Below are positions 12,305 to 64,000 of a stretch of DNA of 64,000 nucleotides, in pieces (within the stretch, counting starts at the first letter, position 1; each line of letters starts with the position of its first letter). The translations under genes were made by a program, and so were the position numbers. Source of the DNA: an uncultured Mycoplasmatota bacterium (lineage in GTDB: Bacteria > Bacillota_I > Bacilli_A > RF39 > UBA660); assembly GCA_946494015.1 (NCBI GenBank), contig CAMMBL010000002.1, positions 1,379 to 65,378 on the forward strand. The letters run 5' to 3'. The notes below the pieces were generated by a model, which searched no databases, was not told where the DNA came from, and saw nothing but the letters and a program-made list of their open reading frames with translations.

Positions 12305-12565
12305 TTTGTTAAAAGTTGTGATGGAGAGTTTTATAATTATTTTGTTATAGAGATATCTTGGGTGGTGAAAAAGATACAAATAATAATTATAAAATATGGC
12401 TTCTGAACTTTCATATTGATAGGTAAGTATGAACGTGACTAAGCGTTAATTAGAATGAGATACAAGATTTATTGTAAGAAAGGTGGTACCGTGTAGATTA
12501 TTTATCTATGCCCTTTTGTTATAATAAATCTTTTTCTTTAATATTAAGTTTGAATTTATTTAAGG
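12305..12565 (+). promoter_or_regulatory. T-box leader (tRNA-sensing riboswitch) controlling metG; candidate Met specifier AUG at 12396-12398
   Basis: Conserved T-box sequence AAGAAAGGTGGTACCGTG at 12476-12493. Stem-I-like elements upstream (GATGGAGAG, AGAGA, GGTGGTGAAA). An AT-rich imperfect helix plus T-run lies just before the metG RBS. The boundaries are approximate. Confidence 0.75.
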
Positions 12566-12576
12566 AGGAGATACAA

Positions 12577-14112
12577 ATGAAAAAGTTTTATATTACAACA
12601 CCTATTTATTACCCAAGTGCAAATTTTCATATTGGTCATTGTTATACCACAATAATTGCAGATGCAATTGCAAGGTATAAACGAAATAAAGGATTTGATG
12701 TTTATTTTCAAACTGGTACCGATGAACATGGTTTAAAAATAGAAACTAAAGCCAAAGAGGCTGGAGTTAGTCCTAAAAAATATGTAGATAAGGTGGTTTT
12801 AAATGCTAAGGATTTATGGAAATCTTTAGATATTTCTTATGATTATTTTATTAGAACAACAGATGAAAATCACGTTAAAGCTGTTCAAAAAATATTTACT
12901 AAATTATATGAACAAGGTGATATTTATAAAGGTACTTATAAAGGACTTTATTGTATTCCTTGTGAATCATTTTGGACTAAAACGCAACTTATAGATGGTA
13001 AATGTCCTGATTGTGGTAGAGAAGTTAAAGAAGTGGAAGAAGAAGCTTATTTTTTAAAGCTTTCAAAATATCAAGATCGATTAGTTGAATATATAGAAAG
13101 TCATCCTGATTTTATTGAACCAGAATCTCGTAAAAATGAAATGATAAATAATTTTATTAAACCTGGTCTTGAAGATTTATGTGTTTCAAGGACAAGTTTT
13201 ACATGGGGAATTCCTGTTCCCTTTGATCAAAAACATGTTGTTTATGTATGGTTAGATGCTTTAACTAATTATATAACTTCATTAGGATATATGAGTGATG
13301 ATGACACTAAGTTTAAACAATATTGGCCAGCTGATTTACATTTAGTTGGTAAAGAAATCATTAGATTCCATACAATAGTTTGGCCTATTATACTGATGGC
13401 GTTAGATTTACCATTACCAAAAAAAGTTTATGGACATGGTTGGTTAGTTATTAATGGTAATAAAATCTCTAAATCTTTAGGAAATTATAAAGATCCAAGA
13501 GAGTATATTAAATATTTTGGTGTTGATGCTGTAAGATATTTTGTATTAAGAGAAGTTCCTTTTGGTAATGATGGTAATTTTTCTGTTGAAGCTCTAATTG
13601 ATAGAACTAATGCTGATTTAGCCAATACACTTGGTAATTTAGTTCAAAGAACTATTAGTATGGCAAATAAATATTTTGAAGGTAAAATAAGTAATAAAAA
13701 GGTTTATGAAGATATAGATAATGATTTTATAAAAAAAATAAATAGTTTAGATGAAGATGTTTCTTTAGAAATAGATAAATTAGAAATATCTTTAGGACTT
13801 AATAAAATTTTTGAATTATTAAGATTTAGTAATAAATATATAGATGAAACAATGCCATGGGTATTAGCAAAAGATGAAAAAAGTAAAGATAGACTTGAAA
13901 CAGTCTTATACAATTTACTAGAATCTATTAGAGTGTGTGCTTTGAGTCTTAATTTTGCTATTCCATCAACTAGTAGAGAAATTATTAGACAACTTAATAA
14001 TAAAAGTTCTGATATTAAATATTTAGAAGATAATAATTATGAAGTAATTAGTCCAAAACCTTTATTTGGAAGAATTGATAAAGATACTTTTTTAAAAGAA
14101 CATGATTTGTAA
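12577..14112 (+). CDS. metG: Methionine--tRNA ligase (short form without the C-terminal tRNA-binding domain)
   Basis: HIGH motif (NFHIGH), KMSKS variant (KISKS), zinc knuckle CIPCE...CPDCG. AAGGAGGAG RBS precedes the ATG at 12577; the ORF track start at 12508 lies inside the T-box leader. Confidence 0.93.
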   Translation: MKKFYITTPIYYPSANFHIGHCYTTIIADAIARYKRNKGFDVYFQTGTDEHGLKIETKAKEAGVSPKKYVDKVVLNAKDLWKSLDISYDYFIRTTDENHVKAVQKIFTKLYEQGDIYKGTYKGLYCIPCESFWTKTQLIDGKCPDCGREVKEVEEEAYFLKLSKYQDRLVEYIESHPDFIEPESRKNEMINNFIKPGLEDLCVSRTSFTWGIPVPFDQKHVVYVWLDALTNYITSLGYMSDDDTKFKQYWPADLHLVGKEIIRFHTIVWPIILMALDLPLPKKVYGHGWLVINGNKISKSLGNYKDPREYIKYFGVDAVRYFVLREVPFGNDGNFSVEALIDRTNADLANTLGNLVQRTISMANKYFEGKISNKKVYEDIDNDFIKKINSLDEDVSLEIDKLEISLGLNKIFELLRFSNKYIDETMPWVLAKDEKSKDRLETVLYNLLESIRVCALSLNFAIPSTSREIIRQLNNKSSDIKYLEDNNYEVISPKPLFGRIDKDTFLKEHDL

Positions 14113-14236
14113 AATTTATTGTAAAGAAAAAAATAAATGAGGTTTATTTTACATGTAATCTCATTTTTTATGTTATAGTTAAAGGGTAGTGTATGAGGTA
14201 ACTAGTAGTATTGAAGTCGTAAGAAAGGATGAATCT

Positions 14237-14419
14237 ATGACTAAAAGACGAAAGTTAGAAATTGACAGTATAATATTTTTATTATTATATGCCGGATTGT
14301 TTGTAACAGTTATTTTGGTACATAATTTATTAGATATTATTTATTTTATAACTTTAACATTCTATTTAATTAGACTTATTTTATGTCGAAAGAAAAAAGA
14401 TCATGTAAATAATAATTAA
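14237..14419 (+). CDS. Small hypothetical membrane protein (60 aa)
   Basis: AAGGATGA RBS before the ATG at 14237, two hydrophobic segments, and a strong terminator immediately downstream. Confidence 0.4.
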   Translation: MTKRRKLEIDSIIFLLLYAGLFVTVILVHNLLDIIYFITLTFYLIRLILCRKKKDHVNNN

Positions 14420-14444
14420 TAAGTTAAGAAAGTGGAGTTTAAGG

Positions 14445-14479
14445 ATGATTTCTTGTTGATTAGAAATCATTTTTCTTTT
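14445..14479 (+). terminator. Rho-independent terminator
   Basis: Perfect 9-bp stem ATGATTTCT / AGAAATCAT with an 8-nt loop, followed by TTTTCTTTT. Confidence 0.75.
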
Positions 14480-14564
14480 ACTTAAAAGAATAGTTATATT
14501 TGACTATATAACTTTAAACATGATATAAATTAAGTAAAAAATGATAATAAAATTGGAGGTAATT

Positions 14565-15323
14565 ATGTTAATTGATACTCATTGTCATTTAAGTAGTGAA
14601 TATTATGATAATATAAATCAAATAGTAGAAGAAAATAAAAAAGCTTCTGTTTCTTTTATGGTAGTATCTGGCTGTGATAAAAGTGGTATAAAAGAAGTTT
14701 TAGAATTAAAGAAAAAATATGATTGTGTTTTTGCTACAATTGGTTATCATCCTGATTGTGCTGATAAAATTACTTATAATGATTTAAATGTTTTGAAAGA
14801 ACAATTAAAAAATGATAAAATTGTTGGAGTAGGAGAAATTGGCTTAGATTATTATTATACTAAAGAAAATAGAGATAAACAGTTATGGCTATTTGAAGAA
14901 CAATTAAAAATAGCTCAGGAATTAAAATTACCTGTTGTTATTCATTCTAGGGAAGCTACACTTGATACTATTAATATTTTAAAAAAATACAAATTAAAAG
15001 GAATAATTCATTGTTTTAGTGGAAGTTTAGAAACTGCTAATATTTATATAAAGATGGGTTATTTTTTAGGAATTGGAGGGGTTGTAACTTTTAAAAATTC
15101 AAAACTTAAAGAAGTTGTTAAGCAAATATCTTTAGATAATATTGTCCTTGAAACTGATAGTCCATATCTTACTCCAGAGCCTTATCGAGGTAAGAAAAAT
15201 TCTTCTAAATATTTAAATAACATAGCTAGTTACATAGTAAATATCAAAAATATTAATTATGAAGAAGTGGAAAAAATTACTAGTGATAATGCTTGTAAGA
15301 TATTTGACTTTAATATTAAGTAG
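14565..15323 (+). CDS. tatD: TatD-family metal-dependent DNase/hydrolase (YabD)
   Basis: MLIDTHCHL start, GEIGLDYY, VIHSREA and ETDSPYL motifs. GGAGGT RBS. Confidence 0.9.
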   Translation: MLIDTHCHLSSEYYDNINQIVEENKKASVSFMVVSGCDKSGIKEVLELKKKYDCVFATIGYHPDCADKITYNDLNVLKEQLKNDKIVGVGEIGLDYYYTKENRDKQLWLFEEQLKIAQELKLPVVIHSREATLDTINILKKYKLKGIIHCFSGSLETANIYIKMGYFLGIGGVVTFKNSKLKEVVKQISLDNIVLETDSPYLTPEPYRGKKNSSKYLNNIASYIVNIKNINYEEVEKITSDNACKIFDFNIK

Positions 15324-15362
15324 TGTTATTATCAAACTAATAGAAAATGAGGTATAGAAGTT

Positions 15363-15950
15363 ATGAGCATAAAATTTGTAAAATACTTCGGATTTATTAG
15401 TTTGATTTTTTTATTTGCAATTGTAGTTTTATCTGGAAATAAAAAAACGGTGATAACTACATCCAATATTAATAGTGTTAAATCTTTACAGGCTGTGCAT
15501 ATTGTTAATAAATATAATTCAATTAAGGTAGCAGAAGAAAAAAAAGAAACACCAGTTTTTGCTACTTTTAATGAAGCTATAGCTGTGGCTAGTAATATGC
15601 CTGTCGCTTTTATGGGAAAGCTTACAGCGTATGGCCCTGATTGTCCTGGTTGTTCTGGTAACAGCGCTTGTCCACCTAGACAAAACTTTAAAAATGGTAA
15701 TATTTATTTTAATGATCAAGTTTATGGAAAAGTTAGAGTAGTGGCTGCTGATAGATCTATACCTTGTGGAAGTATAGTTCGTATTTCAGGTATAAGAATT
15801 TATGATCAGCCTATTTTAGCTATAGTTATGGATAGAGGTGGTGCAGTTAAAGGTAATCATTTAGATTTGTTATTTACAAGTCAATCTAATTTAGAAGGCT
15901 TTACTACTAGTAATAATATTAAATTTGAAATAATTAGATATGGATGGTAA
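15363..15950 (+). CDS. 3D-domain (MltA-like double-psi barrel) secreted cell-wall protein, YabE-like
   Basis: N-terminal signal-anchor helix. C-terminal block GKLTAYGPDCPGCSG...VAADRSIPCGS...VMDRGGAVKGNHLDLLF is typical of 3D domains. It follows tatD as yabE does in Bacillus. Confidence 0.75.
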   Translation: MSIKFVKYFGFISLIFLFAIVVLSGNKKTVITTSNINSVKSLQAVHIVNKYNSIKVAEEKKETPVFATFNEAIAVASNMPVAFMGKLTAYGPDCPGCSGNSACPPRQNFKNGNIYFNDQVYGKVRVVAADRSIPCGSIVRISGIRIYDQPILAIVMDRGGAVKGNHLDLLFTSQSNLEGFTTSNNIKFEIIRYGW

Positions 15951-15963
15951 AATAAAGTATTAT

Positions 15964-15989
15964 AGTGTCTAAACTCTGACACTTTTTTT
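15964..15989 (+). terminator. Rho-independent terminator AGTGTC-N8-GACACT plus T7 (first copy of the GTGTC/GACAC terminator family)
   Basis: Read directly. The same stem recurs after array genes 1-5. Confidence 0.75.
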
Positions 15990-16007
15990 CTTTTTATCAA
16001 AAAAGTA

Positions 16008-16037
16008 TTGCTATCTTCATTTTTTTTGTGCTATAGT
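16008..16037 (+). promoter_or_regulatory. Sigma-A-type promoter P1: TTGCTA, 18-nt spacer, TGcTATAGT (extended -10)
   Basis: Read directly. The spacer contains a T8 run at 16020-16027. GAAGGAGG RBS lies downstream. Confidence 0.65.
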
Positions 16038-16065
16038 TATATTGTAGAAGGAGGTTAGACAGAGA

Positions 16066-16671
16066 ATGAAAAACGATAATTCTAAGCATGTATTATTAGC
16101 TGTGCTTGGAGTAGCTATTTTAATTGTGGCTGTAGTTGGAGTATCATTTGCAGCATTTAGTTATAGTAAAACTGGAACAAAAGTTAATACTATTACAACA
16201 GGTACTATTACAATGAGTTATAGTGAAACTACTAATGGTATTAATTTAGTTGATGCTCTACCTATGACTGATACTCAAGGTAAAGCATTAACTGGTGAAA
16301 ATAACGTTTTTGATTTTACAGTAAGTGCTACTATTACTGGTACTACTACTATCAATTATGATATTACAGCAACAAAAGAAGAAGGTAGCAATATTGATGA
16401 TTCAGGAGTTAAAGTTTATTTAACTGATGGTGCAAATCCAAGTGAATCTCAAATATTAGCACCTACAAAAATATCTGCTTTATCAAAAACATCTTCAGCT
16501 GCTTCAGGAGCACCAGATGATCAATATATTTTAGAAACTGGTACTATTTCAGCAACTCAATCTAAAAACTATCGTTTAAGAATGTGGGTAGCTGATGATT
16601 ATACTAATCTTGGTACATCTGGTACTTATAAATTACGTGTAAATGTCTATGGAAAAGCAGCTGCACAATAA
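16066..16671 (+). CDS. TasA/camelysin-like SipW-cognate secreted protein, paralog 1
   Basis: 201 aa. One N-terminal hydrophobic helix followed by FAAFSYSKTGTKVNTITTGTITM. The C-terminus carries YRLRMWVAD...YKLRVNVYGKAAAQ. No Cys, lipobox or LPXTG. Strong RBS. Confidence 0.8.
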   Translation: MKNDNSKHVLLAVLGVAILIVAVVGVSFAAFSYSKTGTKVNTITTGTITMSYSETTNGINLVDALPMTDTQGKALTGENNVFDFTVSATITGTTTINYDITATKEEGSNIDDSGVKVYLTDGANPSESQILAPTKISALSKTSSAASGAPDDQYILETGTISATQSKNYRLRMWVADDYTNLGTSGTYKLRVNVYGKAAAQ

Positions 16672-16686
16672 GCTAATTTATATTAA

Positions 16687-16712
16687 AGTGTCTAATCTCT
16701 GACACTTTTTTT
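16687..16712 (+). terminator. Terminator AGTGTC-N8-GACACT plus T7
   Basis: Read directly. Confidence 0.75.
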
Positions 16713-16729
16713 CTTTTTTAAAAAAAGTA

Positions 16730-16759
16730 TTGCTATCTCTATTTTTTTTGTGCTATAGT
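16730..16759 (+). promoter_or_regulatory. Promoter P2: TTGCTA, 18-nt spacer, TGcTATAGT
   Basis: Near-identical to P1. T8 run at 16742-16749 within the spacer. Confidence 0.65.
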
Positions 16760-16787
16760 TATATTGTAGAAGGAGGTTAGACAGAGA

Positions 16788-17390
16788 ATGAAAAATGATA
16801 ATTCTAAGCAAGTATTATTATCAGTTCTTGGTGTGGCTATTTTAATTGTAGCTGTAGTTGGAGTATCATTTGCCGCATTTAGTTACAGTAAAACAGGAAC
16901 AAAAGTTAATACTATTACAACAGGTACTATTACTATGAATTATAGTGAAACTACTAATGGTATTAATTTGACTAATGCTTTACCTATGAGTGATGAAGTA
17001 GGAAAAAAATTAAGTGAAACTGATCAATATTTTGATTTTACTGTTAATGCTAATATTACAGGTAATACTACAATTAATTATGCTATTACAGCGACAAGAG
17101 AAGAAGATAGCGATATTCCAGATACAGGAGTTAAAGTTTATTTAACTGATATGGATGGTACTGCTGATACTGAAATATTAGGTCCTACAAAAATTTCAGC
17201 TTTATCAAAAACATCTTCTGATTCTTCAGGAGCACCTGATGGTCAATATCTTTTAGAAACTGATACATTTAATACAACAAGTTCACATAATTATCGTTTA
17301 AGAATGTGGGTAGCTGATGATTATAGTGTATCTGATACAGCTGGTACTTATAAGTTACGTGTTAATGTTTATGGTCAAGCAGCTGCTTAG
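16788..17390 (+). CDS. TasA/camelysin-like SipW-cognate secreted protein, paralog 2
   Basis: 200 aa with the same N-terminal and C-terminal blocks as paralog 1. The loop after NGINL is of the DEVGKKL..DQYFDF type shared with paralog 7. Confidence 0.8.
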   Translation: MKNDNSKQVLLSVLGVAILIVAVVGVSFAAFSYSKTGTKVNTITTGTITMNYSETTNGINLTNALPMSDEVGKKLSETDQYFDFTVNANITGNTTINYAITATREEDSDIPDTGVKVYLTDMDGTADTEILGPTKISALSKTSSDSSGAPDGQYLLETDTFNTTSSHNYRLRMWVADDYSVSDTAGTYKLRVNVYGQAAA

Positions 17391-17411
17391 TAATAGTATT
17401 ATTTATATTAA

Positions 17412-17434
17412 AGTGTCTAATCTCTGACACTTTT
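17412..17434 (+). terminator. Terminator AGTGTC-N8-GACACT plus T-run
   Basis: Read directly. Confidence 0.7.
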
Positions 17435-17444
17435 CTTTTTTTTC

Positions 17445-17474
17445 TTGCTTGCTTTTAATTTTATATGATATAGT
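17445..17474 (+). promoter_or_regulatory. Promoter P3: TTGCTT, 18-nt spacer, TGaTATAGT
   Basis: Read directly. Confidence 0.6.
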
Positions 17475-17501
17475 TTAATTATAGAAGGAGGATAATTTAT
17501 A

Positions 17502-18110
17502 ATGGAAGTTGATAATTCTAAGCAAGTATTATTATCAGTATTTGGAGTAGCTATTTTAGTAATTGCTGTTTTTGGAGTTTCTTTTGCCGCTTTTAATTAT
17601 TCTAAAACAGGTACTAAAGTTAATACTATTACAACAGGTACTATTACAATGAGTTATACAGAGCCTGATAACGGTATAAATCTTGCTAATGCAATGCCAA
17701 TGAGTGATTCTCAAGGTAAAGTATTAACTGGGGATAACAATGTTTTTGATTTTACAGTTACTACTACAATTGTTGGTACGGCAACAGTTAATTATACAAT
17801 TACAGCAACTAAAGAAGGAGATAGTACTATTCCAGATACAGGAGTTAAAGTTTATTTAACTAATATGGATGCTGATGCTGATTCACAAATATTAGCTCCT
17901 ACTTTAGTGTCAAATTTATCTAAAACTGGTTCTTCTGAACTTTCTGGTGCTCCAGCTAATCAGTATATCCTTAAATCAGATTCAACTACTAGTAGTGTTA
18001 ATCATAAATATCGTTTAAGAATGTGGGTAGCTGATACTTATACAGTTGGTGGTACTTCACAAACTTATAAATTAAGAGTTAATGTTTATGGTAAAGCTCC
18101 AGCTCAATAG
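17502..18110 (+). CDS. TasA/camelysin-like SipW-cognate secreted protein, paralog 3
   Basis: 202 aa. FAAFNYSKTGTKVNTITTGTITM and YRLRMWVADTY...YKLRVNVYGKAPAQ. Confidence 0.8.
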   Translation: MEVDNSKQVLLSVFGVAILVIAVFGVSFAAFNYSKTGTKVNTITTGTITMSYTEPDNGINLANAMPMSDSQGKVLTGDNNVFDFTVTTTIVGTATVNYTITATKEGDSTIPDTGVKVYLTNMDADADSQILAPTLVSNLSKTGSSELSGAPANQYILKSDSTTSSVNHKYRLRMWVADTYTVGGTSQTYKLRVNVYGKAPAQ

Positions 18111-18120
18111 TAGTTGGCGA

Positions 18121-18148
18121 AAAAGTGTCAAAATTTTGGACACTTTTT
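18121..18148 (+). terminator. Terminator AAAAGTGTC-N9-GACACTTTTT
   Basis: Read directly. Confidence 0.75.
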
Positions 18149-18156
18149 GTTTTTTC

Positions 18157-18186
18157 TTGCTTATTACCCACTTAATATGTTATAGT
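18157..18186 (+). promoter_or_regulatory. Promoter P4: TTGCTT, 18-nt spacer, TGtTATAGT
   Basis: Read directly. Confidence 0.6.
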
Positions 18187-18215
18187 TATAGAGTAGAAGG
18201 AGGTTAGACAAGAAA

Positions 18216-18824
18216 ATGAAAGGTAATAATTCTAAACAGTTATTATTATCAATACTTGGAGTAGCTATTTTAGTAGTAGCTGTAGTAGGTGTATCATTTG
18301 CGGCATTTAGTTATAGTAAAACAGGTACTAAAGTTAATACTATTACAACAGGTACTATTACAATGAGTTATGTTGAAGGTGAGAACGCAATTGATCTTAA
18401 AAATGCAATGCCAATGACTGATGTTAATGGTAAAGCTTTAACTGGAGATAATAATGTTTTTGACTTCACAGTAAATGCAACTATTACTGGTACTACTACT
18501 ATTGATTATGCAATTACAGCTACTAAAGAGCCTGATAGTACATTACCAGAGAGTGGAGTTAAAGTTTATTTAACTGACATGGATGCTGATGCTGATGATC
18601 AAATTTTAGCCCCTACACTTGTATCTAGTTTAGGTAAAACTACAAGTTCAGAAACTTCAGGAGCTCCAGTAGATCAATATAAACTTACAACAGGTACTTT
18701 TAATGCTACTACCACTCACAAATATCGTTTAAGAATGTGGGTAGCAGATACTTATAATGTTAGTGGTACTTCACAGACTTTCAAATTAAGAGTTAATGTC
18801 TATGGAAAAGCTGCTGCACAATAA
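18216..18824 (+). CDS. TasA/camelysin-like SipW-cognate secreted protein, paralog 4
   Basis: 202 aa with the same conserved blocks. Confidence 0.8.
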   Translation: MKGNNSKQLLLSILGVAILVVAVVGVSFAAFSYSKTGTKVNTITTGTITMSYVEGENAIDLKNAMPMTDVNGKALTGDNNVFDFTVNATITGTTTIDYAITATKEPDSTLPESGVKVYLTDMDADADDQILAPTLVSSLGKTTSSETSGAPVDQYKLTTGTFNATTTHKYRLRMWVADTYNVSGTSQTFKLRVNVYGKAAAQ

Positions 18825-18836
18825 AAGATAAATATA

Positions 18837-18859
18837 GTGTCAATTTTTTGACACTTTTT
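18837..18859 (+). terminator. Terminator GTGTCAA-N4-TTGACAC plus T5
   Basis: Read directly. Confidence 0.75.
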
Positions 18860-18867
18860 CTTTTTGC

Positions 18868-18897
18868 TTGCTTCGTTATTATTTATTATGTTATTAT
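18868..18897 (+). promoter_or_regulatory. Promoter P5: TTGCTT, 18-nt spacer, TGtTATTAT
   Basis: Read directly. Confidence 0.5.
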
Positions 18898-18930
18898 TAT
18901 ATTTGTAAGATATAAGGAGGTATATAATAA

Positions 18931-19542
18931 GTGAAGAATAGTAACAAAGGTAACAAACAAGTATTATTATCAATACTTGGAGTGGCTATTTTAGTTGTAG
19001 CTGTTATTGGTATATCCTTTGCCGCATTTAATTATAGTAAAACAGGAACAAAAGTTAATACCATTACAACAGGTACTATTACGATGAGCTATAGTGAGCC
19101 TACAAATGGGATTAATTTAGTTGATGCTCTACCAACAACAGATGCTAAAGGTAAGGCTTTAACAGGTGATGGTAAAGTGTTTGATTTTACAGTTAGTGCT
19201 ACTATTGATGGTGTTACAACTATTAATTATGATATTACAGCTGCTAAAGATGAAACAAGTACTTTAGATGATTCTATTATAAAAGTATATTTGACTAATA
19301 TGGATGGTGATAGTGATACTGAGATATTAGCTCCTACTAGAGCTTCTGAATTACCAACAACAACATCATCATCTTCAGGAGCGCCAGATGGTCAATTTAT
19401 TTTACGCTCAGGTACTATTACATCATCTGAATCACATGATTATCGTTTAAGAATGTGGGTAGCTGAAGATTTTTCGACATTGGGTGCTAAAGGTACTTAT
19501 AAATTAAGAGTTAATGTTTATGGTAAAGCTGATGCTCAATAA
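18931..19542 (+). CDS. TasA/camelysin-like SipW-cognate secreted protein, paralog 5
   Basis: 203 aa with a GTG start after AAGGAGG. FAAFNYSKTGTKVNTITTGTITM and YRLRMWVAEDF...YKLRVNVYGKADAQ. Confidence 0.8.
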   Translation: MKNSNKGNKQVLLSILGVAILVVAVIGISFAAFNYSKTGTKVNTITTGTITMSYSEPTNGINLVDALPTTDAKGKALTGDGKVFDFTVSATIDGVTTINYDITAAKDETSTLDDSIIKVYLTNMDGDSDTEILAPTRASELPTTTSSSSGAPDGQFILRSGTITSSESHDYRLRMWVAEDFSTLGAKGTYKLRVNVYGKADAQ

Positions 19543-19552
19543 TTTTTAATAT

Positions 19553-19578
19553 AAGTGTCAAAAAAAAGACACTTTTTT
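19553..19578 (+). terminator. Terminator AAGTGTC-A8-GACACTT plus T-run
   Basis: Read directly. Confidence 0.7.
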
Positions 19579-19596
19579 CTTTTAAGCAAATAAAAC

Positions 19597-19626
19597 TTGC
19601 TAATACTATTTTTTGTGTGATATATT
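19597..19626 (+). promoter_or_regulatory. Promoter P6: TTGCTA, 18-nt spacer, TGaTATATT
   Basis: Read directly. Confidence 0.6.
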
Positions 19627-19651
19627 AATACTAAGAAGGAGAATAGACATA

Positions 19652-20248
19652 ATGGAAAAAAATAGAAAACAGATTATATGGTCAATTATAGGTATTGTTA
19701 TTTTAATATTAATGGCTATAAGTGTAAGTTATGCTGCAGTTTTTTATAGTAAAACTGGTGAAAAAGTTAATACGGTAACTACAGGTACAATTACAATGAG
19801 TTATAGTGAGAATACTAATGGTATAAATCTTACAGATGCTTATCCTATGGCTGATGGTATTGGTAAGACATTAAGTCAACAAAATCAATATTTTGATTTT
19901 ACAATTAGTGCTACTCTAGGTGATACTATTATTAATTATGCTGTTACTGCTACTAAAGAATCTGATAGTACTTTACCAGATAATGCTGTAAAAGTATATT
20001 TGACTGATATTAATGGCGGAGCTGATAAGGAAATATTAGCACCAACTAAAATATCTGATTTAGATATAACTAGATCACACGTATCAGGAGCACCAGATGG
20101 TCAATTCTTGTTATATAGTAACAGTTTTAGTAAAAATACATCAAATAATTATCGTTTAAGAATGTGGGTAGCTAGTGATTATGTTCTTCCACTTGAAAGC
20201 CAAACATACAAATTAAGAGTTAACGTTTATGGTAGTGTAGTAGCTTAA
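19652..20248 (+). CDS. TasA/camelysin-like SipW-cognate secreted protein, paralog 6
   Basis: 198 aa from the ATG at 19652, preceded by an AGGAG RBS; the ORF track TTG at 19613 lies inside the promoter. SYAAVFYSKTGEKVNTVTTGTITM and YRLRMWVASDY...YKLRVNVYG. Confidence 0.8.
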   Translation: MEKNRKQIIWSIIGIVILILMAISVSYAAVFYSKTGEKVNTVTTGTITMSYSENTNGINLTDAYPMADGIGKTLSQQNQYFDFTISATLGDTIINYAVTATKESDSTLPDNAVKVYLTDINGGADKEILAPTKISDLDITRSHVSGAPDGQFLLYSNSFSKNTSNNYRLRMWVASDYVLPLESQTYKLRVNVYGSVVA

Positions 20249-20264
20249 ATTTATAAAAATATAA

Positions 20265-20292
20265 GGTGTAATATAAGAAACTACACTTTTTT
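20265..20292 (+). terminator. Weaker terminator GTGTA-N11-TACAC plus T6
   Basis: Read directly. Only a 5-bp stem. Confidence 0.45.
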
Positions 20293-20293
20293 C

Positions 20294-20322
20294 TTTACCT
20301 AAAAAAATTCCTGTGGTACAAT
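20294..20322 (+). promoter_or_regulatory. Promoter P7: TTTACC, 17-nt spacer, TGgTACAAT
   Basis: Read directly. Confidence 0.5.
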
Positions 20323-20349
20323 TATTTTAAAGTATAGGGAGTGTTTATT

Positions 20350-20982
20350 ATGAATAATCAAAATTCTGAAGATAAAATAATTGAGAAAAATTCTAGTAGT
20401 AAATTATTTATTATAATAATTGCACTTTTAATATTTAGTATTACAATAGTTGGTGTTTCTCTTGCGACTTTTACTTATACTAAGGAAAAAGAAAATATAA
20501 ATACTATTAGTACGGGAAATATTTATTTAAATTATACAGAAGATACTAATGGAATAAATATTACTGATGCTTATCCTATGGCTGATGAAGTAGGTAAAAA
20601 ACTTACTAATGAAGATCAGTATTTTGATTTTTCAGTTAAAGCTGATTTAACAGGTAATGTTGTTACTAATTATGAAATAGCTGCTGAAAAGACTGAAACT
20701 TCAACACTTAATAATGACGAAGTTAGATTGTATTTAGAAAAAAAAGTTGATGATACTTATCAAGAAGTTATGGCTCCTAAAGAATTTACTCCTTTGAAAG
20801 AAAGTACAGAAATTGGTACTTTAGCAGGAACAATGTTGTTAGATAAAGCTTCTTTCAAAAAAAGTGGCATAATTAATTATCGTTTAAGAATGTGGGTAGC
20901 TGATGATGCAATTTTAACTGATATACAAAAAAGTTTTGGAGTTAAAGTTTCTATAAAAGCTAAAGTTGATTTAGACAAATAA
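20350..20982 (+). CDS. TasA/camelysin-like SipW-cognate secreted protein, paralog 7 (most divergent of the array)
   Basis: 210 aa from the ATG at 20350 (GGGAG RBS 8 nt upstream). SLATFTYTKEKENINTISTGNIYL and YRLRMWVADD...FGVKVSIKAKV. Longer cytoplasmic N-tail, and it lacks the SGAP motif of paralogs 1-6. Confidence 0.75.
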   Translation: MNNQNSEDKIIEKNSSSKLFIIIIALLIFSITIVGVSLATFTYTKEKENINTISTGNIYLNYTEDTNGINITDAYPMADEVGKKLTNEDQYFDFSVKADLTGNVVTNYEIAAEKTETSTLNNDEVRLYLEKKVDDTYQEVMAPKEFTPLKESTEIGTLAGTMLLDKASFKKSGIINYRLRMWVADDAILTDIQKSFGVKVSIKAKVDLDK

Positions 20983-21069
20983 ATTTAGAGGTAATTTTTC
21001 CTAAATATTAATTTTCCTCTTTTTTAGTTTGCATTGTTGATATAAGAATATTAAGTGGGTGATAACTCG

Positions 21070-21744
21070 ATGAAAAATAATAAAAAAAATTGGTTATATA
21101 CATTAAAGAAATTTTTCCATTTCTTGACAACAGTTTTAATGTATTCTATTTGTTTATTAATGGTAATCATTTTTTTAGTATTTGTAGTTAACTTTATTGA
21201 TAAACAAAATAATATTAAAGCTGGTAATAATAAAAAAGATCTTTTATCAGCTTATACAATAGTTAGTCCAAGTATGGTTCCAGCGATAAACGTTCTTGAT
21301 GTAGTTGTTACTAAAAGAGTAGATGATCCTAATGAATTAAAAAAGGGAGATATTATTACTTTTAATTCTACTGATTATAGGTATTCTGGTGTTACAGTAA
21401 CTCATAGAATTGTTGATATAGAAAAAACTAGTAATGGTAAATATTTATATGTTACGAAGGGTGATAATAATAATACTCAAGATTCTTCGAGAATTAGCTT
21501 TGATGAGATTTATGGCGAAGTAATATTTAGAATTCCTAAGATAGGGTATATTCAATATTATCTTAGTTCTATACTTGGTTGGGTATTTATAATTATAATA
21601 CCAGCTGTTATGATTATTATTTATGATATATATAAATTAGTTAAGACTTTAAACACTAAGGATGATAGTAAGGGTAACAAAAAAAATAAAGATAAAACTG
21701 TTAAGAAAAAAGAGAATGTTAAGAAGAGGAGATTTGAAAAATGA
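21070..21744 (+). CDS. sipW: SipW-type (ER/archaeal-type, S26B) signal peptidase I
   Basis: N-terminal TM helix, catalytic Ser box VSPSMVPAI, VTHRIV His box (Ser/His type, no Lys box), KGDNN box and a C-terminal TM helix. Reads collinear with B. subtilis SipW (LSGSMEP...VTHRIVDI...TKGDNN, from memory). A K-rich tail follows. Confidence 0.85.
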   Translation: MKNNKKNWLYTLKKFFHFLTTVLMYSICLLMVIIFLVFVVNFIDKQNNIKAGNNKKDLLSAYTIVSPSMVPAINVLDVVVTKRVDDPNELKKGDIITFNSTDYRYSGVTVTHRIVDIEKTSNGKYLYVTKGDNNNTQDSSRISFDEIYGEVIFRIPKIGYIQYYLSSILGWVFIIIIPAVMIIIYDIYKLVKTLNTKDDSKGNKKNKDKTVKKKENVKKRRFEK

Positions 21745-22280
21745 AAAAGAAGATATTGTTAATAATGGCGGGGTTTGCTTTATTTGTCTTTATTTTGACA
21801 ACATCTATGCTATGGTTTAATTTCTTTTATGATGAACCTGATGTAAATACAATTAGTTCTATACAAGTACAACTTAGTGATACTAATAATGTAATTAATG
21901 AAGCAAATTTAATTCCACTTGATGAAGAAACAGCTAAGTATCTTACTCCTTATGAATTTAGGGTTAGTAATCAAAGTGATGCTGCAACAACTTACAATGT
22001 GTTATTAGAAGATGCAATTATTAGTGATGATATTAATTATAGTAGTAAAGAATTATTAAGTAGAAATCAGTTAGAATATCAATTATCACTTAATGGTAGA
22101 GTTATAAAACATGGTATGTTAAGTGATATAAAGAATAATATTTTGGATACTAGGAATATTGGTACTAATCAAGAAAATTATTATCAATTAAGAATATATG
22201 TAAGTGAAAAAGCTCAAACAAGTGCATGGCAAAATAAATATTATCATTTTAATATAAGAGTACAAATGGAGGATAAATAA
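21741..22280 (+). CDS. Divergent eighth member of the fibre-subunit family (candidate anchor or minor subunit)
   Basis: 179 aa; its ATG overlaps the sipW stop (ATGA). The N-terminal TM helix is followed by WFNFFYDEPDVNTISSIQVQLSDTNNVIN, compared with FAAFSYSKTGTKVNTITTGTITMSYSETTNGIN in the array. YQLRIYVSE and YHFNIRVQ mirror YRLRMWVAD and YKLRVNVYG. Confidence 0.7.
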   Translation: MKKKILLIMAGFALFVFILTTSMLWFNFFYDEPDVNTISSIQVQLSDTNNVINEANLIPLDEETAKYLTPYEFRVSNQSDAATTYNVLLEDAIISDDINYSSKELLSRNQLEYQLSLNGRVIKHGMLSDIKNNILDTRNIGTNQENYYQLRIYVSEKAQTSAWQNKYYHFNIRVQMEDK

Positions 22281-22282
22281 AG

Positions 22283-22972
22283 ATGAAAAAGATTTTATTA
22301 GAGTATGCTAATATTATTGGTTATACTATTACAGGTTTGATTTTTGGATTATCGTTTTTTCTATTATTTATTAATTTTTATCATTCACAAGAATTAAGTT
22401 ATGTTGCTGATGTAAGTGAGTATAATACAATAAATAAAGATACTGTTTCTCAGAAAATTGCTACAATAAGAGCTAATTTAAGTGTATATAATCAAGCAAA
22501 TTATAGTGGTAATTTGAATATCTATGGTCTTAATACAGCTCAAATAAAATTAGAGGAATGTTTAAAAATTATAGAAAGTCCAGAAATGATGGCATATTTT
22601 GAGAAAAAAGAAATTCAATTAAAAGATAGTTATAATTTTGCTGTAGATTTTAAAAATAAGATTTTAAATGATTGTTTAGTTATGCAAGTTAAATCTATGT
22701 TTAATACTGATACAGTATCTAAGCTTCCTAATTTTGATATTATTAAACCATATGTTGAACTTAGTTTAAATAATTTATTAAGCTCATCAGCTTATGTACA
22801 GGCTGATTTAGAAAATGCTGATCATTATTTCTTTAATACAAATGGCAATAGAACTAATTTCTTTGATTTAGTTAATGATAGTTATTCTAATATTATGAAT
22901 GATTATCAAGATTCACTTGATTTATTAGTAGAAATTTCGGCTTGGTTTAAGAGTATAGTAATAGGAGGATAA
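22283..22972 (+). CDS. Hypothetical single-pass membrane protein with a ~190-aa extracytoplasmic domain
   Basis: Starts 2 nt after the preceding stop. N-terminal TM helix (ITGLIFGLSFFLLFINF). No family recognised. Confidence 0.6.
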   Translation: MKKILLEYANIIGYTITGLIFGLSFFLLFINFYHSQELSYVADVSEYNTINKDTVSQKIATIRANLSVYNQANYSGNLNIYGLNTAQIKLEECLKIIESPEMMAYFEKKEIQLKDSYNFAVDFKNKILNDCLVMQVKSMFNTDTVSKLPNFDIIKPYVELSLNNLLSSSAYVQADLENADHYFFNTNGNRTNFFDLVNDSYSNIMNDYQDSLDLLVEISAWFKSIVIGG

Positions 22973-22973
22973 G

Positions 22974-23426
22974 ATGAAAAAGATACTTAATGGTTTATTT
23001 TATTTTTTAAAATTTTTATTGTTGATTGGTGCTTTTGGATTAACTTTATTTATTTTAGTAAGAATGAATATAAGATTAGATAAAAGTGTAACTACAATTA
23101 TTCCTGAAATTGTACCATTTATACTAATATTACTTGTATTTATTATTAATTTTATTTTTAAACAAAAAGGTGTTACTGATAATGTATTTTATAATATTAC
23201 TTGTTGTTTGGTATTTACTACTATAATAGTAGCAAGTTTAAGAGCAATTTTTGATACAAATATGGTTCTTAATAAGAAATATGGTTATGGTATTGATTTT
23301 AATTTTTTTGATAATTTTATTGCTTATATTAAGATTATGGTTTATGGATTATCAATCGCTAATTTATTTTTAATGTTTAGAGAAAAAGATAAAGATGAAA
23401 AGCCTAAGAAAGAAAAAAAAGCTTAG
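22974..23426 (+). CDS. Hypothetical polytopic (~4 TM) membrane protein with a Lys-rich C-terminal tail
   Basis: Starts 1 nt after the preceding stop. Four hydrophobic segments. No family recognised. Confidence 0.6.
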   Translation: MKKILNGLFYFLKFLLLIGAFGLTLFILVRMNIRLDKSVTTIIPEIVPFILILLVFIINFIFKQKGVTDNVFYNITCCLVFTTIIVASLRAIFDTNMVLNKKYGYGIDFNFFDNFIAYIKIMVYGLSIANLFLMFREKDKDEKPKKEKKA

Positions 23427-23502
23427 ACTTTTTATTTTTTGTATAGTAAACTAATTTATATGTGTACAACTTTTATTAATTGTAAGTGAAAAGAGTGATA
23501 TT

Positions 23503-24300
23503 GTGGATAATTTTAGATTTAAAAAAAAGTTTGGTCAAAATTTTTTAAAAAATGCAAATATTATTAAAAAAATAGTTGATTGTGGTAATGTTGAACCTGA
23601 ATCATTAATTTTTGAAGTAGGGACAGGTAGCGGTAATTTAACTTTAGTTTTAGCTGATACTTATAAAGATAGTAAGATTATAACTTATGAAGTTGATGAG
23701 TCATTAGAAGTTATTTTAAATAATAGATTTAAAGAATATAATAATATTATTGTTAAATTTGGTGATTTTTTAAAAGTAGATTTAGATAAAGAAGTAAGTA
23801 ATTATAGTTATAATAAACTTTATTTTATTAGTAATGTTCCTTATTATATTACTACACCTATTTTATTTAAACTTATTGATAGTTCACTTAGCTTTGATAA
23901 AATTATAATGATGGTTCAAAAAGAAGTAGGAGATAGATTTTGTAGTAGTGTTTCTAAAAAGACTTATGGAGCTTTAACTGTTATTTTAAATTATTATTTT
24001 GATATAAAAAAAGAATTTTTAGTAGATAGAAATCAATTTGTTCCTAAGCCTAATGTAGATAGTGTAGTTGTTTCTTTTACTAAGAAAGCTAAACTTTTAC
24101 CACTATATGATGAGAAAGTTTTTATTAAGTTAGTACATGATAGTTTTAAATTTAAGAGGAAGACATTACGTAATAATTTAGTTAACTATAATTTAGATAA
24201 AGTTTTAGAAATACTTAATAAATATGGCTTTGATCTTAGTGTTAGAGCTGAAAATTTAAGTTATGATATTTTTGTTGAGATATCTAATAATTTAGTATAA
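23503..24300 (+). CDS. rsmA: 16S rRNA (adenine1518/1519-N6)-dimethyltransferase
   Basis: KKFGQNFL, EVGTGSGNLT and SNVPYYITTPI motifs. GTG start. Confidence 0.92.
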   Translation: MDNFRFKKKFGQNFLKNANIIKKIVDCGNVEPESLIFEVGTGSGNLTLVLADTYKDSKIITYEVDESLEVILNNRFKEYNNIIVKFGDFLKVDLDKEVSNYSYNKLYFISNVPYYITTPILFKLIDSSLSFDKIIMMVQKEVGDRFCSSVSKKTYGALTVILNYYFDIKKEFLVDRNQFVPKPNVDSVVVSFTKKAKLLPLYDEKVFIKLVHDSFKFKRKTLRNNLVNYNLDKVLEILNKYGFDLSVRAENLSYDIFVEISNNLV

Positions 24301-24338
24301 ATAATTTTTCTAAACATATAATTTATTGGGTGAATTAT

Positions 24339-25127
24339 ATGTTTAAAATAGGAGATTATGTAACTAGAAAATCTTATAATAATGATATCTTATTTGAAGT
24401 AGTTGATATTGATGAAGATATTGCCTATTTAAAAGGTATAGATGTTAGATTATATGCTGATAGTTATCTTGATGATTTATTATTAGCAGATGTTGATATT
24501 TTAAACAATGATAAAAATGATGATCGTAATTATGCATTAAAAATTAAAGATATGTTAAGTCTTGATAGAAGTGAATTTTTTTATTTGCCAGGTAAAATTT
24601 TACATATTGATGGGGATAAAGATTATTTAAAAAGGTGTATTGAATTTTATAAAGAAATGCGATTAGAAGCTTATGGTGTTAATATTTTAGAAGATGAATT
24701 TGAAAAAGAAATAGTTACATGTTTAGAAAAATATAATCCTGATATTTTAGTAATTACAGGTCATGATTCGTTTAAAAAGAATAAAGATAAAAATAAGCTT
24801 GACAGTTATCAAAATTCTTATAATTTTGTAAAAGCTACTATGAAGGCTCGTGAATATGAAAGAAATCAAGATAAATTAATTATTATTGCTGGTGCTTGTC
24901 AATCTTTTTATGAAGATTTAATTAAAGCTGGTGCTAATTTTGCTTCTAGTCCTAAAAGAATTAATATTCATGCTCTTGATCCGGCTATTATTGCTAGTAC
25001 TATTGCTTTATCTCCGAAAAATAAAGAGATAGATTTAATTTCTGTAATAGAAAAAACACATTATGGTAGTGCTGGTATGGGTGGTATTATTACTAATGGT
25101 GTTATGTATGTGGGGTACCCTAGATGA
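24339..25127 (+). CDS. yabG: Sporulation-specific peptidase YabG
   Basis: MFKIGDYVTRKSYNNDILFEV N-terminus and the ITGHD...GACQS core. Follows ksgA as in Bacillus. GGGTGA RBS. Confidence 0.8.
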   Translation: MFKIGDYVTRKSYNNDILFEVVDIDEDIAYLKGIDVRLYADSYLDDLLLADVDILNNDKNDDRNYALKIKDMLSLDRSEFFYLPGKILHIDGDKDYLKRCIEFYKEMRLEAYGVNILEDEFEKEIVTCLEKYNPDILVITGHDSFKKNKDKNKLDSYQNSYNFVKATMKAREYERNQDKLIIIAGACQSFYEDLIKAGANFASSPKRINIHALDPAIIASTIALSPKNKEIDLISVIEKTHYGSAGMGGIITNGVMYVGYPR

Positions 25128-25793: not shown

Positions 25794-26090
25794 ATGGAAA
25801 CAAAAGATGCAATAATTAATAATTATAATCATAGTATTACAATTACGGAAAGAAAGAATCTTCTTATTACTGGAGTAAAGAAAATAGAAAATTTTGATAG
25901 TGAAGAATTTTTACTTGAAACTGTTATGGGAATATTAACAGTTAAAGGTGAAGATTTAGAATTGGTTAAATTGGATACTTTAGCTGGAAATGTTTCTATA
26001 AAGGGATTAGTAAAAGGCTTTTCTTATATAGATGATAATGTTAAAAAGGAAAAAGAAGGGAGTAGCGTTTTTAATCGCTTATTTAGATAA
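25794..26090 (+). CDS. yabP: Sporulation protein YabP
   Basis: 98 aa. The pattern H.ITI..R..L.ITGV..IE.FD.EE is typical of YabP. Followed by yabQ and divIC as in Bacillus. Confidence 0.8.
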   Translation: METKDAIINNYNHSITITERKNLLITGVKKIENFDSEEFLLETVMGILTVKGEDLELVKLDTLAGNVSIKGLVKGFSYIDDNVKKEKEGSSVFNRLFR

Positions 26091-26437
26091 TGAGTTTAAC
26101 TGAACAGGTTATTTCAATGATCTTTTCTTTTATTTATGGTATGTTTTTAGCATGTGCTTATAATATTAATTATAATTTATTATTTAATATTAAATTGACT
26201 TTTAAAGTGTTGTTTAATATTGTTTTTATTATAGATTTAGTTTTAATATATTTTATAATTATAAAAAAAATAAATAATGGTATTATTCATCCATATTTTT
26301 ATATTTTGATTATTTTGGGATTTTATCTTTTCTTTAAAATTACAAAAAAACTTAGAAATATTTTTAAGATAGAGAAATTAGTAAAAAATCAAGATAAATT
26401 AAAAAGAAAAGTGACTAAAAGTGTAAAGAATGATTAG
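26090..26437 (+). CDS. yabQ: Spore cortex biosynthesis membrane protein YabQ
   Basis: 115 aa with multiple TM segments. Its start overlaps the yabP stop. Synteny supports the call. Confidence 0.7.
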   Translation: MSLTEQVISMIFSFIYGMFLACAYNINYNLLFNIKLTFKVLFNIVFIIDLVLIYFIIIKKINNGIIHPYFYILIILGFYLFFKITKKLRNIFKIEKLVKNQDKLKRKVTKSVKND

Positions 26438-63190: not shown

Positions 63191-64000
63191 AACCCCTAGA
63201 TAGTCTAGGGGTTCAGTAAAGCTTTAGCGATGAGTTGAAAATAAAAACTCCTTCTAATATAATATGAGTTGCGACTGCCAAGAAGCAACCATAATATTAG
63301 AAAGAGTACATTTATAATGAAAGAAATCAAAATAAATGATATAAAGAGTTTAGCACATACAACGTGGAATTGTAAATATCATATAGTATTTGCACCAAAG
63401 TATAGACGAAAAGTCTTTTACGCAAGTAAAAGGTTAGAAATAGGATAAATATTAAGACAATTATGTGAATGGAAAGGTGTAACAATAATAGAAGCGGAAG
63501 TTTGTCCCGATCATATACATATGTTACTAGAAATACCACTTAAATATAGTGTGTCATCATTCATGGAATTTCTGAAAGGTAAAAGTAGCTTGATGATATA
63601 TAGTAGGTGGGCAAGCGCAAGGTATCAATATAGAAATAGAGAGTTTTGGTGTAGAGGATATTATGCTGATACTGTAGGAAAAAATACAAGAAAAATAAAA
63701 GAATATATAGCAAATCAACTAAAAGAAGATCAATTAAGTGGACAGATGACACTTGAAGATTTTGACCCTTTTAAAGGGTAGCAAGTAATGAATGCTTTTG
63801 GCAGTTGAGTTAGACACTTTAGTGAGTGCCAGTAGTATAGCCTTTTAGGCGAAAAAGAAAAACTACTAGCTATGATAGTGGAAATTTATTATTATGCAAA
63901 ACATCAGTTTTGCATTCAAAACCACCAGCTAGCTGATGTAAATAGTAAAGAGCGAGCCCATCAAAAAACATATAAATCTCCTCCTGTTATAATATAAATG
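63191..64000 (+). mobile_element. IS200/IS605-family element (right boundary not resolved; may run off the window)
   Basis: Perfect 10-bp hairpin AACCCCTAGA-tag-TCTAGGGGTT (63191-63213). A 16-nt imperfect stem (63248-63263 / 63291-63306) covers the tnpA SD. A Y1 transposase gene follows. Downstream hairpin ATGCAAAAC-atca-GTTTTGCAT at 63894-63915. Confidence 0.8.
63317..63781 (+). pseudogene. tnpA: IS200-type Y1 (HUH) transposase TnpA with an in-frame TAA at 63446-63448
   Basis: MKEIKINDIKSLAHTTWNCKYHIVFAPKYRRKVFYASKRLEIG-TAA-ILRQLCEWKGV...PDHIHMLLEIP (HUH)...RGYYADTVG (catalytic Tyr), all in one frame. Homologs have Lys where the stop occurs. Confidence 0.85.

Follow-up and report, generated by a model that had tools for sequence, protein, structure and literature searches.

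An ER-type signal peptidase encoded beside a tandem array of secreted beta-sandwich paralogs in uncultured gut Bacilli, and its probable specialisation for that family

Bacterial signal peptidases I of the P-type, such as SipS of Bacillus subtilis, employ a Ser/Lys pair (Ser43 and Lys83 in SipS), whereas SipW of the same organism, an ER-type enzyme, depends on Ser47, His87 and Asp106 (PMC8767453). Those bacterial ER-type enzymes that have been studied, SipW among them, have specialised roles in cells that also possess P-type enzymes (PMC8767453). The signal peptide of TasA ends at T-W-A/A-F (the slash marks the cut), with Phe at P2'; SipW cuts this site, whereas LepB does so inefficiently (PMC10269814). 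A regulatory role has been reported for the last 20 residues of SipW (Terra et al. 2012, as cited in PMC8767453). Loci of the TasA superfamily often hold a TIGR02228-type peptidase together with anchors and tip proteins (PMC9245690; bioRxiv 10.64898/2026.01.04.697558), and the pairing of an ER-type signal peptidase with a fibre substrate is an emerging biofilm theme in bacteria and archaea, with TasA, BsaA, AbpA, AbpX and Tafi as examples. Here we compare with these systems a locus from an uncultured Mycoplasmatota bacterium.

The window, by which we mean the whole 64,000-nt (64 kb) stretch of DNA analysed, has a G+C content of about 25% and carries almost every gene on one strand. At 21070-21744 on the forward strand it encodes a protein of 224 aa, in which the first-pass annotation had recognised a Ser box (SPSM), a His box (VTHRIV), a KGDNN motif and a second, C-terminal transmembrane (TM) helix. 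All were found. The three motifs of the translation supply S68, H112 and D132 (codons at 21271-21273, 21403-21405 and 21463-21465, respectively), and hydropathy analysis delimited two TM segments, at about residues 14-47 and 158-194, within which the helices themselves are placed at about residues 19-47 (TM1) and 165-190 (TM2). Among 26 homologues no substitution occurred at S68, and D138 was likewise invariant. The overlap that had been described between the stop codon and the next start codon, ATGA at 21741-21744, is present as well, and the ribosome-binding site of the downstream gene p179, AGAGGAG, lies within the 3' end of the peptidase gene, so that translational coupling of the two genes is directly supported.

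The first-pass annotation had placed the protein in the SipW/Sec11 class, as collinear with SipW, and had considered the P-type (Ser/Lys) peptidases as the competing placement. Compared with NCBIfam models, the protein scored 96.5 bits against TIGR02228 (cut-off 51.85, E=1.4e-27, model positions 7-155 of 158) and 18.9 bits against TIGR02227, the P-type model, for which 47 are required; with the Pfam model PF10502 it scored 16.3 bits, below 22.9. The P-type placement thus failed. Its best relative of solved structure was human SEC11A (E 2e-6), with SxSM, HR and KGDNN..D aligned. For the alignments with B. subtilis enzymes, we used query sequences that we take to be those of SipW and SipS; against their own NCBIfam models these reached 255 bits (cut-off 190) and 176 bits (cut-off 47), respectively. 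The peptidase was 34% identical to SipW over 168 aa, both TM regions included (BLASTP E=9e-28), which bears out the collinearity. In the multiple alignment, S68 of SPSM fell on the SGSM box of SipW and SEC11A, H112 on SipW His87 and D132 on SipW Asp106, covering the whole SipW triad; H112 also occupies the column of the catalytic Lys83 of SipS, and the general-base Lys of the SipS type is therefore absent. These comparisons directly support the enzyme class and the active-site residues: judged by sequence, the protein is an ER-type (S26B) signal peptidase I with a Ser68-His112-Asp132 active site. It is predicted to work like SipW and is not a SipW orthologue, because it scored 99.7 bits against NF046067, the equivalog model of Bacillus SipW, with a cut-off of 190.

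Upstream of the peptidase gene and on the same strand, seven members of one protein family stand in tandem (16066-20982), and an eighth, p179, follows downstream; membership was established with a family HMM and by alignment. The first five, W-7 (16066-16671, 201 aa), W-6 (16788-17390, 200 aa), W-5 (17502-18110, 202 aa), W-4 (18216-18824, 202 aa) and W-3 (18931-19542, 203 aa, with a GTG start), are of a major type and share 65-76% identity. W-2 (19652-20248, 198 aa from the ATG at 19652) represents a distinct subtype, 55-62% identical to those five, and W-1 (20350-20982, 210 aa) a divergent subtype, 34-42% identical to the other paralogs. The G+C content of window positions 16001-20000 is 0.30, compared to ~0.25 in the flanks, and the GC skew is 0.14-0.18, compared to 0.3-0.4. 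This shift probably stems from the Thr/Gly/Ala-rich composition of the paralogs or from a codon usage associated with high expression, and not necessarily from a foreign origin.

Each of the genes W-7 to W-2 is preceded by an intergenic cassette, the first of which occupies 15951-16065 on the forward strand. The cassette consists of a terminator hairpin (AGTGTC..GACACT followed by a T-run), a -35 element TTGCT[AT] (TTGCTA in the first cassette), an extended -10 element (TGnTATAGT or TATAT) and a ribosome-binding site (GAAGGAGG, GAAGGAG(G) across cassettes). Before W-1 and the peptidase gene the cassette is degenerate and its signals are weaker. Strong cassettes at the paralogs and weaker signals at the peptidase gene fit structural proteins made in large amounts and an enzyme made in smaller ones. 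An Rfam scan of the locus detected no regulatory RNA. The only Rfam match in the window at the gathering threshold was STnc490, at 63191-63303 (57.1 bits; threshold 56). STnc490 is a family of enterobacterial Hfq-binding sRNAs and unexpected in a low-GC Firmicute; the match is possibly due to chance or to a mis-assigned structured element.

Three genes follow the peptidase gene on the same strand. The first of them, p179 (21741-22280, family HMM E 2.1e-23), encodes the most divergent family member, 27-33% identical to the paralogs that can be aligned with it. The alignment and the N-termini of its orthologues revealed an N-terminal TM helix and no small-x-small cleavage motif. Because the motif is missing while the TM helix is present, p179 is probably an uncleaved, membrane-anchored member of the family. 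By hydropathy, p229 (22283-22972) is a conserved single-pass membrane protein; p150 (22974-23426), likewise conserved, crosses the membrane about four times and has a Lys-rich tail. Neither Pfam nor NCBIfam returned a significant family when scanned with the paralogs, p179, p229 and p150.

The peptidase itself ends in a Lys-rich tail of about 35 residues, which had been pointed out before and is real but variable. Lys accounts for 37% of the last 35 residues, the highest proportion among the 62 open reading frames of the window (mean Lys content 9.6%). Every tail of the close homologues is Lys-rich and ends in a conserved RFKK-like motif; those of distant homologues vary from ~25 to ~130 aa and differ in composition. 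The tail showed no sequence resemblance to that of SipW or to any family model, and composition is the one feature that would speak for a signalling role. Two other small membrane proteins of the window, p150 and a YabQ-like protein (26090-26437), have Lys-rich tails too, which seem to be a general trait of membrane proteins in this AT-rich genome. At four related loci, the SipW homologue is 285-315 aa long (L067:9950-10876, L082:9947-10867, L087:9950-10894 and L085:9968-10822), with a cytoplasmic tail longer by ~100 aa and rich in Lys, Asp and Glu. Three of these loci (L067, L082 and L087) are without upstream paralogs, and L085 is without p179, p229 and p150.

All seven upstream paralogs possess a Sec-type signal peptide with a predicted site G-V-S-F-A/A-F (VGVSFA/AFSYSK in W-7, followed by the beta-sandwich domain), which appears as VSYA/AV in W-2 and as VSLA/TF in W-1. 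In an alignment of 179 paralogs, the predicted site had Gly at -5 in 169, Ser at -3 in 174, Phe or Tyr at -2 in 147, Ala at -1 in 178, Ala or Thr at +1 in 166 and Phe at +2 in 169. Within the 64 kb window, the motif S-x-A/[AT]-[FV] was confined to the array, in its seven upstream paralogs. The first-pass annotation had spoken of eight neighbours sharing a cognate motif: eight family members are indeed there, and the motif is found in seven and missing in p179. Like T-W-A/A-F of TasA, the paralog site S-F-A/A-F is aromatic at both P2 and P2'. Such sites are reported to be cut poorly by LepB-type enzymes, which would give these bacteria a reason for keeping a specialised peptidase. Against TIGR04088, the model for SipW-cognate signal peptides, the paralogs scored 8.7 bits, below the cut-off of 19, whereas TasA itself scored 38. 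The best match of the paralog N-terminus among 18,950 NCBIfam models was TasA, a weak one (E 0.023).

Relatives of the peptidase are numerous: we found 920 in a protein collection, the only named source being Candidatus Onthousia, and 408 stretches encoding one in a one-genome-per-species collection. All the loci inspected belong to uncultured gut Bacilli or 'Tenericutes' MAGs. Synteny was counted at the species level in the best 79 of the 408 loci, to which the following numbers refer. The gene order tatD, yabE-like, paralogs, peptidase, p179, p229, p150, rsmA persists to 44% peptidase identity. Upstream family paralogs on the same strand adjoin the peptidase gene in 75/79 loci; p179 is present in 71/79, p229 in 76/79 and p150 in 76/79. 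The family genes lie on the strand of the peptidase gene without exception (326/326), and the ATGA-type overlap with p179 is retained in 37 loci. Relatives with a visible array boundary have 0-6 upstream copies, and the seven copies of the window are the largest number seen. The W-1 orthologue is the gene directly upstream of the peptidase gene in 58/75 loci, and p179 is a fixed orthologue. With positional orthologues of W-1, W-2 and p179 and a variable copy number of the major type, the locus resembles pilus loci with their major and minor subunits.

The surrounding genes of the window, at 12508-25127, are metG, tatD, a yabE-like gene (3D domain), the module, rsmA/ksgA, a yabG-like gene, veg and spoVG. 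This order mirrors what we take to be the B. subtilis order metS-yabD-yabE-rnmV-ksgA-yabG-veg, with the module in the place of rnmV. At a related locus on a 1.5 Mb contig (L001), the yabG-like gene encodes Peptidase_U57, and the array is split (L001:3406-7601) by an insertion of ~4 kb, in which transposase genes of the ISL3 and IS110 families, both on the opposite strand, are accompanied by two unannotated genes. Sporulation-associated genes (spoVT-like, yabP, yabQ and yabG) suggest a walled, possibly spore-forming organism despite the 'Tenericutes' label of some MAGs.

The peptidase most likely removes the Sec signal peptides of this co-inherited family of secreted beta-sandwich proteins, as an ER-type enzyme with an outward-facing active site and a cytoplasmic Lys-rich tail, and it is probably specialised for that protein family. 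The first-pass annotation had proposed a dedicated secretion and maturation module. The adjacency of paralogs in 75 of the best 79 of 408 loci, the near-invariant site and the restriction of the motif to the array within the window uphold that proposal; a related locus (L080:10013-10630) speaks against it: there, the SipW-type peptidase is intact and lies between rsmA and the yabE-like gene, whereas family members, p179, p229 and p150 are all absent from the 10 kb on either side. Upstream paralogs are also missing from three further related genomes. The designation 'dedicated' is well supported but unproven.

The peptidase could alternatively be the general, possibly the sole, signal peptidase I of a lineage with a reduced genome (~1.5 Mb), with the array as its most abundant client. 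We consider this unlikely, although several observations are in its favour: in all 79 of the best 79 of 408 loci, the gene lies inside a conserved housekeeping block (metG-tatD-yabE...rsmA-yabG-veg-spoVG); L080 has kept its peptidase intact, although neither array nor accessory genes adjoin it there; and family members elsewhere in the genomes would be served in trans. No second signal peptidase was found in the 64 kb window either, the string S-A-S-M occurring there only in ClpP; the window, however, is ~4% of a ~1.5 Mb genome, so that a missing P-type gene says little. On the other hand, co-function is suggested by the tight coupling of translation with p179, itself a family member, and by an array that adjoins the gene in nearly every locus; aromatic P2 and P2' residues would be expected of a specialised enzyme-substrate pair; and the bacterial ER-type enzymes studied are specialised and act alongside P-type enzymes (PMC8767453). 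Specialisation for the paralog family thus remains the reading that we prefer.

A peptidase acting on other proteins, with the paralogs left uncleaved and their N-terminal helix serving as a permanent anchor of type II surface proteins, is a much less probable explanation. The hydrophobic helix is strongly conserved and modelled at high confidence, p179 is without the cleavage motif, and the long relatives with adhesin domains have no other obvious anchor, all of which would suit permanent anchoring. However, the paralogs display the classic n-h-c layout, in which a Gly at -5 breaks the helix and Ser/Ala occupy -3/-1 in >97% of the 179 sequences, and a pure anchor would not need such conservation of the motif. 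Its absence from p179 indicates, moreover, that shared descent within the family does not by itself produce the motif.

The family as a whole is large: one collection contained 1,641 matches and a second 4,903 clusters at 50% identity (E<=1e-3). No Pfam or NCBIfam model represents it. Long members, of up to 1,743 aa, start with the same N-terminal module of signal peptide and beta-sandwich, followed by Big_2 domains, Listeria-Bacteroides repeats (Flg_new) or BspA-type LRRs (LRR_5); one member of 1,120 aa stands inside an array. Examples of long or fused members are L051:2133-5492, P0252, P0305, P0356 and P0299 (loci L088-L090). P0356 and P0299 (L088-L090) lie in unrelated neighbourhoods with no peptidase gene of this type within 10 kb. 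As some members are encoded >10 kb from any such gene, the specificity of the peptidase, if any, would be for the protein family and not for the operon.

An AlphaFold (AF2) model of a paralog, built from 73 sequences (pLDDT 86.7), consists of the signal helix followed by a beta-sandwich, with low confidence over the first ~15 mature residues (pLDDT <50 at residues 33-42). Such a poorly defined N-terminal segment would be compatible with donor-strand complementation, but does not count as evidence for it. Employing Foldseek against the PDB, we obtained the AbpA pilus (7ueg_A; prob 0.98, E 2.7e-3) at rank 1 and the TasA fibre (8aur_A; prob 0.96, E 3.8e-3) at rank 3, both with a TM-score of ~0.3; no match reached E<=1e-3. 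With an earlier, shallow model (pLDDT 75.5), the matches were mixed jelly-rolls. The model thus weakly suggests that the paralogs share a TasA/AbpA-like fibre fold, and a TasA-like donor-strand fibre is plausible but unproven.

Sequence comparisons with TasA were carried out at several levels. No paralog of the window matched PF12389 (Peptidase_M73/TasA) at E<=0.1; among the 73 relatives there were two matches, the best with E 0.0048. In an hhalign comparison with a TasA-family alignment, the full-length family gave E 6.5e-4 at a probability of 27.5%. After removal of the signal peptides, TasA gave P=0.033, worse than a reversed-sequence control (P=0.012). The full-length signal came from the signal-peptide region, and we therefore claim no sequence homology between the mature domains and TasA. 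A Pfam scan of the 73 relatives at E<=1 yielded scattered matches driven by the TM helix (DUF7472 in 11, Pilin_N in 5 and Peptidase_M73 in 2), and TIGR04089 and TIGR04090 did not match in the paralog scans.

That the paralogs are type IV pilin-like subunits retaining their hydrophobic N-terminal helix, with the peptidase a mere bystander, is scarcely credible. Type IV pilins of archaea were matched weakly in a profile search of PDB sequences (6nav and 8tib, E 0.04-0.3), as were Pilin_N in 5/73 relatives (best E 0.039) and PilA4 (E 0.12), but these matches are driven by the hydrophobic helix alone, and the marginal PDB matches also included a TM peptide. The missing class III signal (no Gly/Ala at -1 before the helix, no Glu5) and a conserved locus without prepilin peptidase, assembly ATPase or platform protein speak against pilin identity.

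Taking the peptidase as specialised for the paralog family, we propose the following course of events. The active site Ser68-His112-Asp132 would face outward, held by two TM helices with the tail in the cytoplasm, and would cut the Sec signal peptide of family proteins at G-[VI]-S-[FY]-A/[AT]-F. Its substrates would be the seven upstream paralogs in the window and, in related genomes, also the dispersed adhesin-domain fusions. The structural genes would each be transcribed singly from a strong cassette of promoter and ribosome-binding site, and the peptidase gene from a weaker start site, in translational coupling with p179 and followed by the two conserved membrane proteins. Cleavage may then free the mature N-terminal segment for assembly on the cell surface, possibly into a donor-strand fibre of the TasA/AbpA kind, anchored close to the membrane by p179, which would stay uncleaved, and with W-1 and W-2 contributing the minor subunits. 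Cleavage by this peptidase, its exclusivity for the paralog family and polymerisation of the products are the steps that we infer.

A broader proposal, which we put forward tentatively and regard as possible rather than likely, is that an undescribed surface polymer is a core trait of this large lineage of uncultured gut Bacilli. SipW-type cleavage would release an N-terminal strand, and the polymer would then be built by donor-strand exchange: several major subunits that differ antigenically (W-7 to W-3), the minor ones (W-2 and W-1) and adhesin-fused members encoded elsewhere would be added onto p179, with p229 and p150 assisting. If so, it would be a sortase-independent modular pilus made of a protein family without a Pfam or NCBIfam model. 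Should surface fibres form, these organisms would probably display them as their dominant antigen or adhesin. The site S-F-A/A-F would furthermore be a second natural example of why aromatic P2 and P2' residues need a Ser/His peptidase.

Compared with the P-type enzymes SipS and LepB (TIGR02227), the peptidase shares the S26 fold core and the SxSM Ser box, whereas its general base is His112 and theirs is Lys (K83 in SipS). Its catalytic motifs align with those of eukaryotic SEC11A/C and the archaeal Sec11-type enzymes (TIGR02228, MEROPS S26B), and it passes the model that covers them; unlike SEC11A/C, it stands alone, with a second TM helix of its own and no sign of the eukaryotic partner subunits. 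It has in common with B. subtilis SipW the ER type, the Ser-His-Asp triad, two TM helices and a cytoplasmic C-terminal tail. The tail differs, being Lys-rich and unrelated, and the predicted substrates, unlike TasA, fail PF12389 and TIGR04088. Taken by itself, the peptidase is unremarkable within its known family.

The locus likewise resembles tapA-sipW-tasA in that the peptidase gene adjoins its secreted (here predicted) substrates, with aromatic P2 and P2' at the sites in both, and in that a divergent family-related or accessory protein belongs to the operon, TapA there and p179 here. It differs in that a single substrate gene is replaced by seven in tandem, each transcribed individually, and in the additional conserved membrane proteins p229 and p150. 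The loci of archaeal AbpA, AbpX and Tafi and of the BsaA family of Clostridium perfringens (TIGR04090) also place small secreted beta-sandwich proteins (modelled as such here) by a TIGR02228-type peptidase, often together with genes for anchor, tip or accessory proteins. Structurally, the paralog model was matched best by fibre subunits of AbpA and TasA, yet homology of the mature domains is not demonstrated; the AbpX-associated enzyme has 10 TM helices, whereas the enzyme described here has 2. The general arrangement of a SipW-like peptidase with its substrates is already known, and the locus is not a new kind of system. It extends the theme to a large unannotated substrate family (4,903 clusters at 50% identity), to abundant, uncultured Bacilli of the animal gut as hosts, and to up to seven separately transcribed paralogs with a probable uncleaved anchor paralog. 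New in the module are the unannotated substrate family, its tandem array, that probable anchor paralog and the two conserved membrane proteins.
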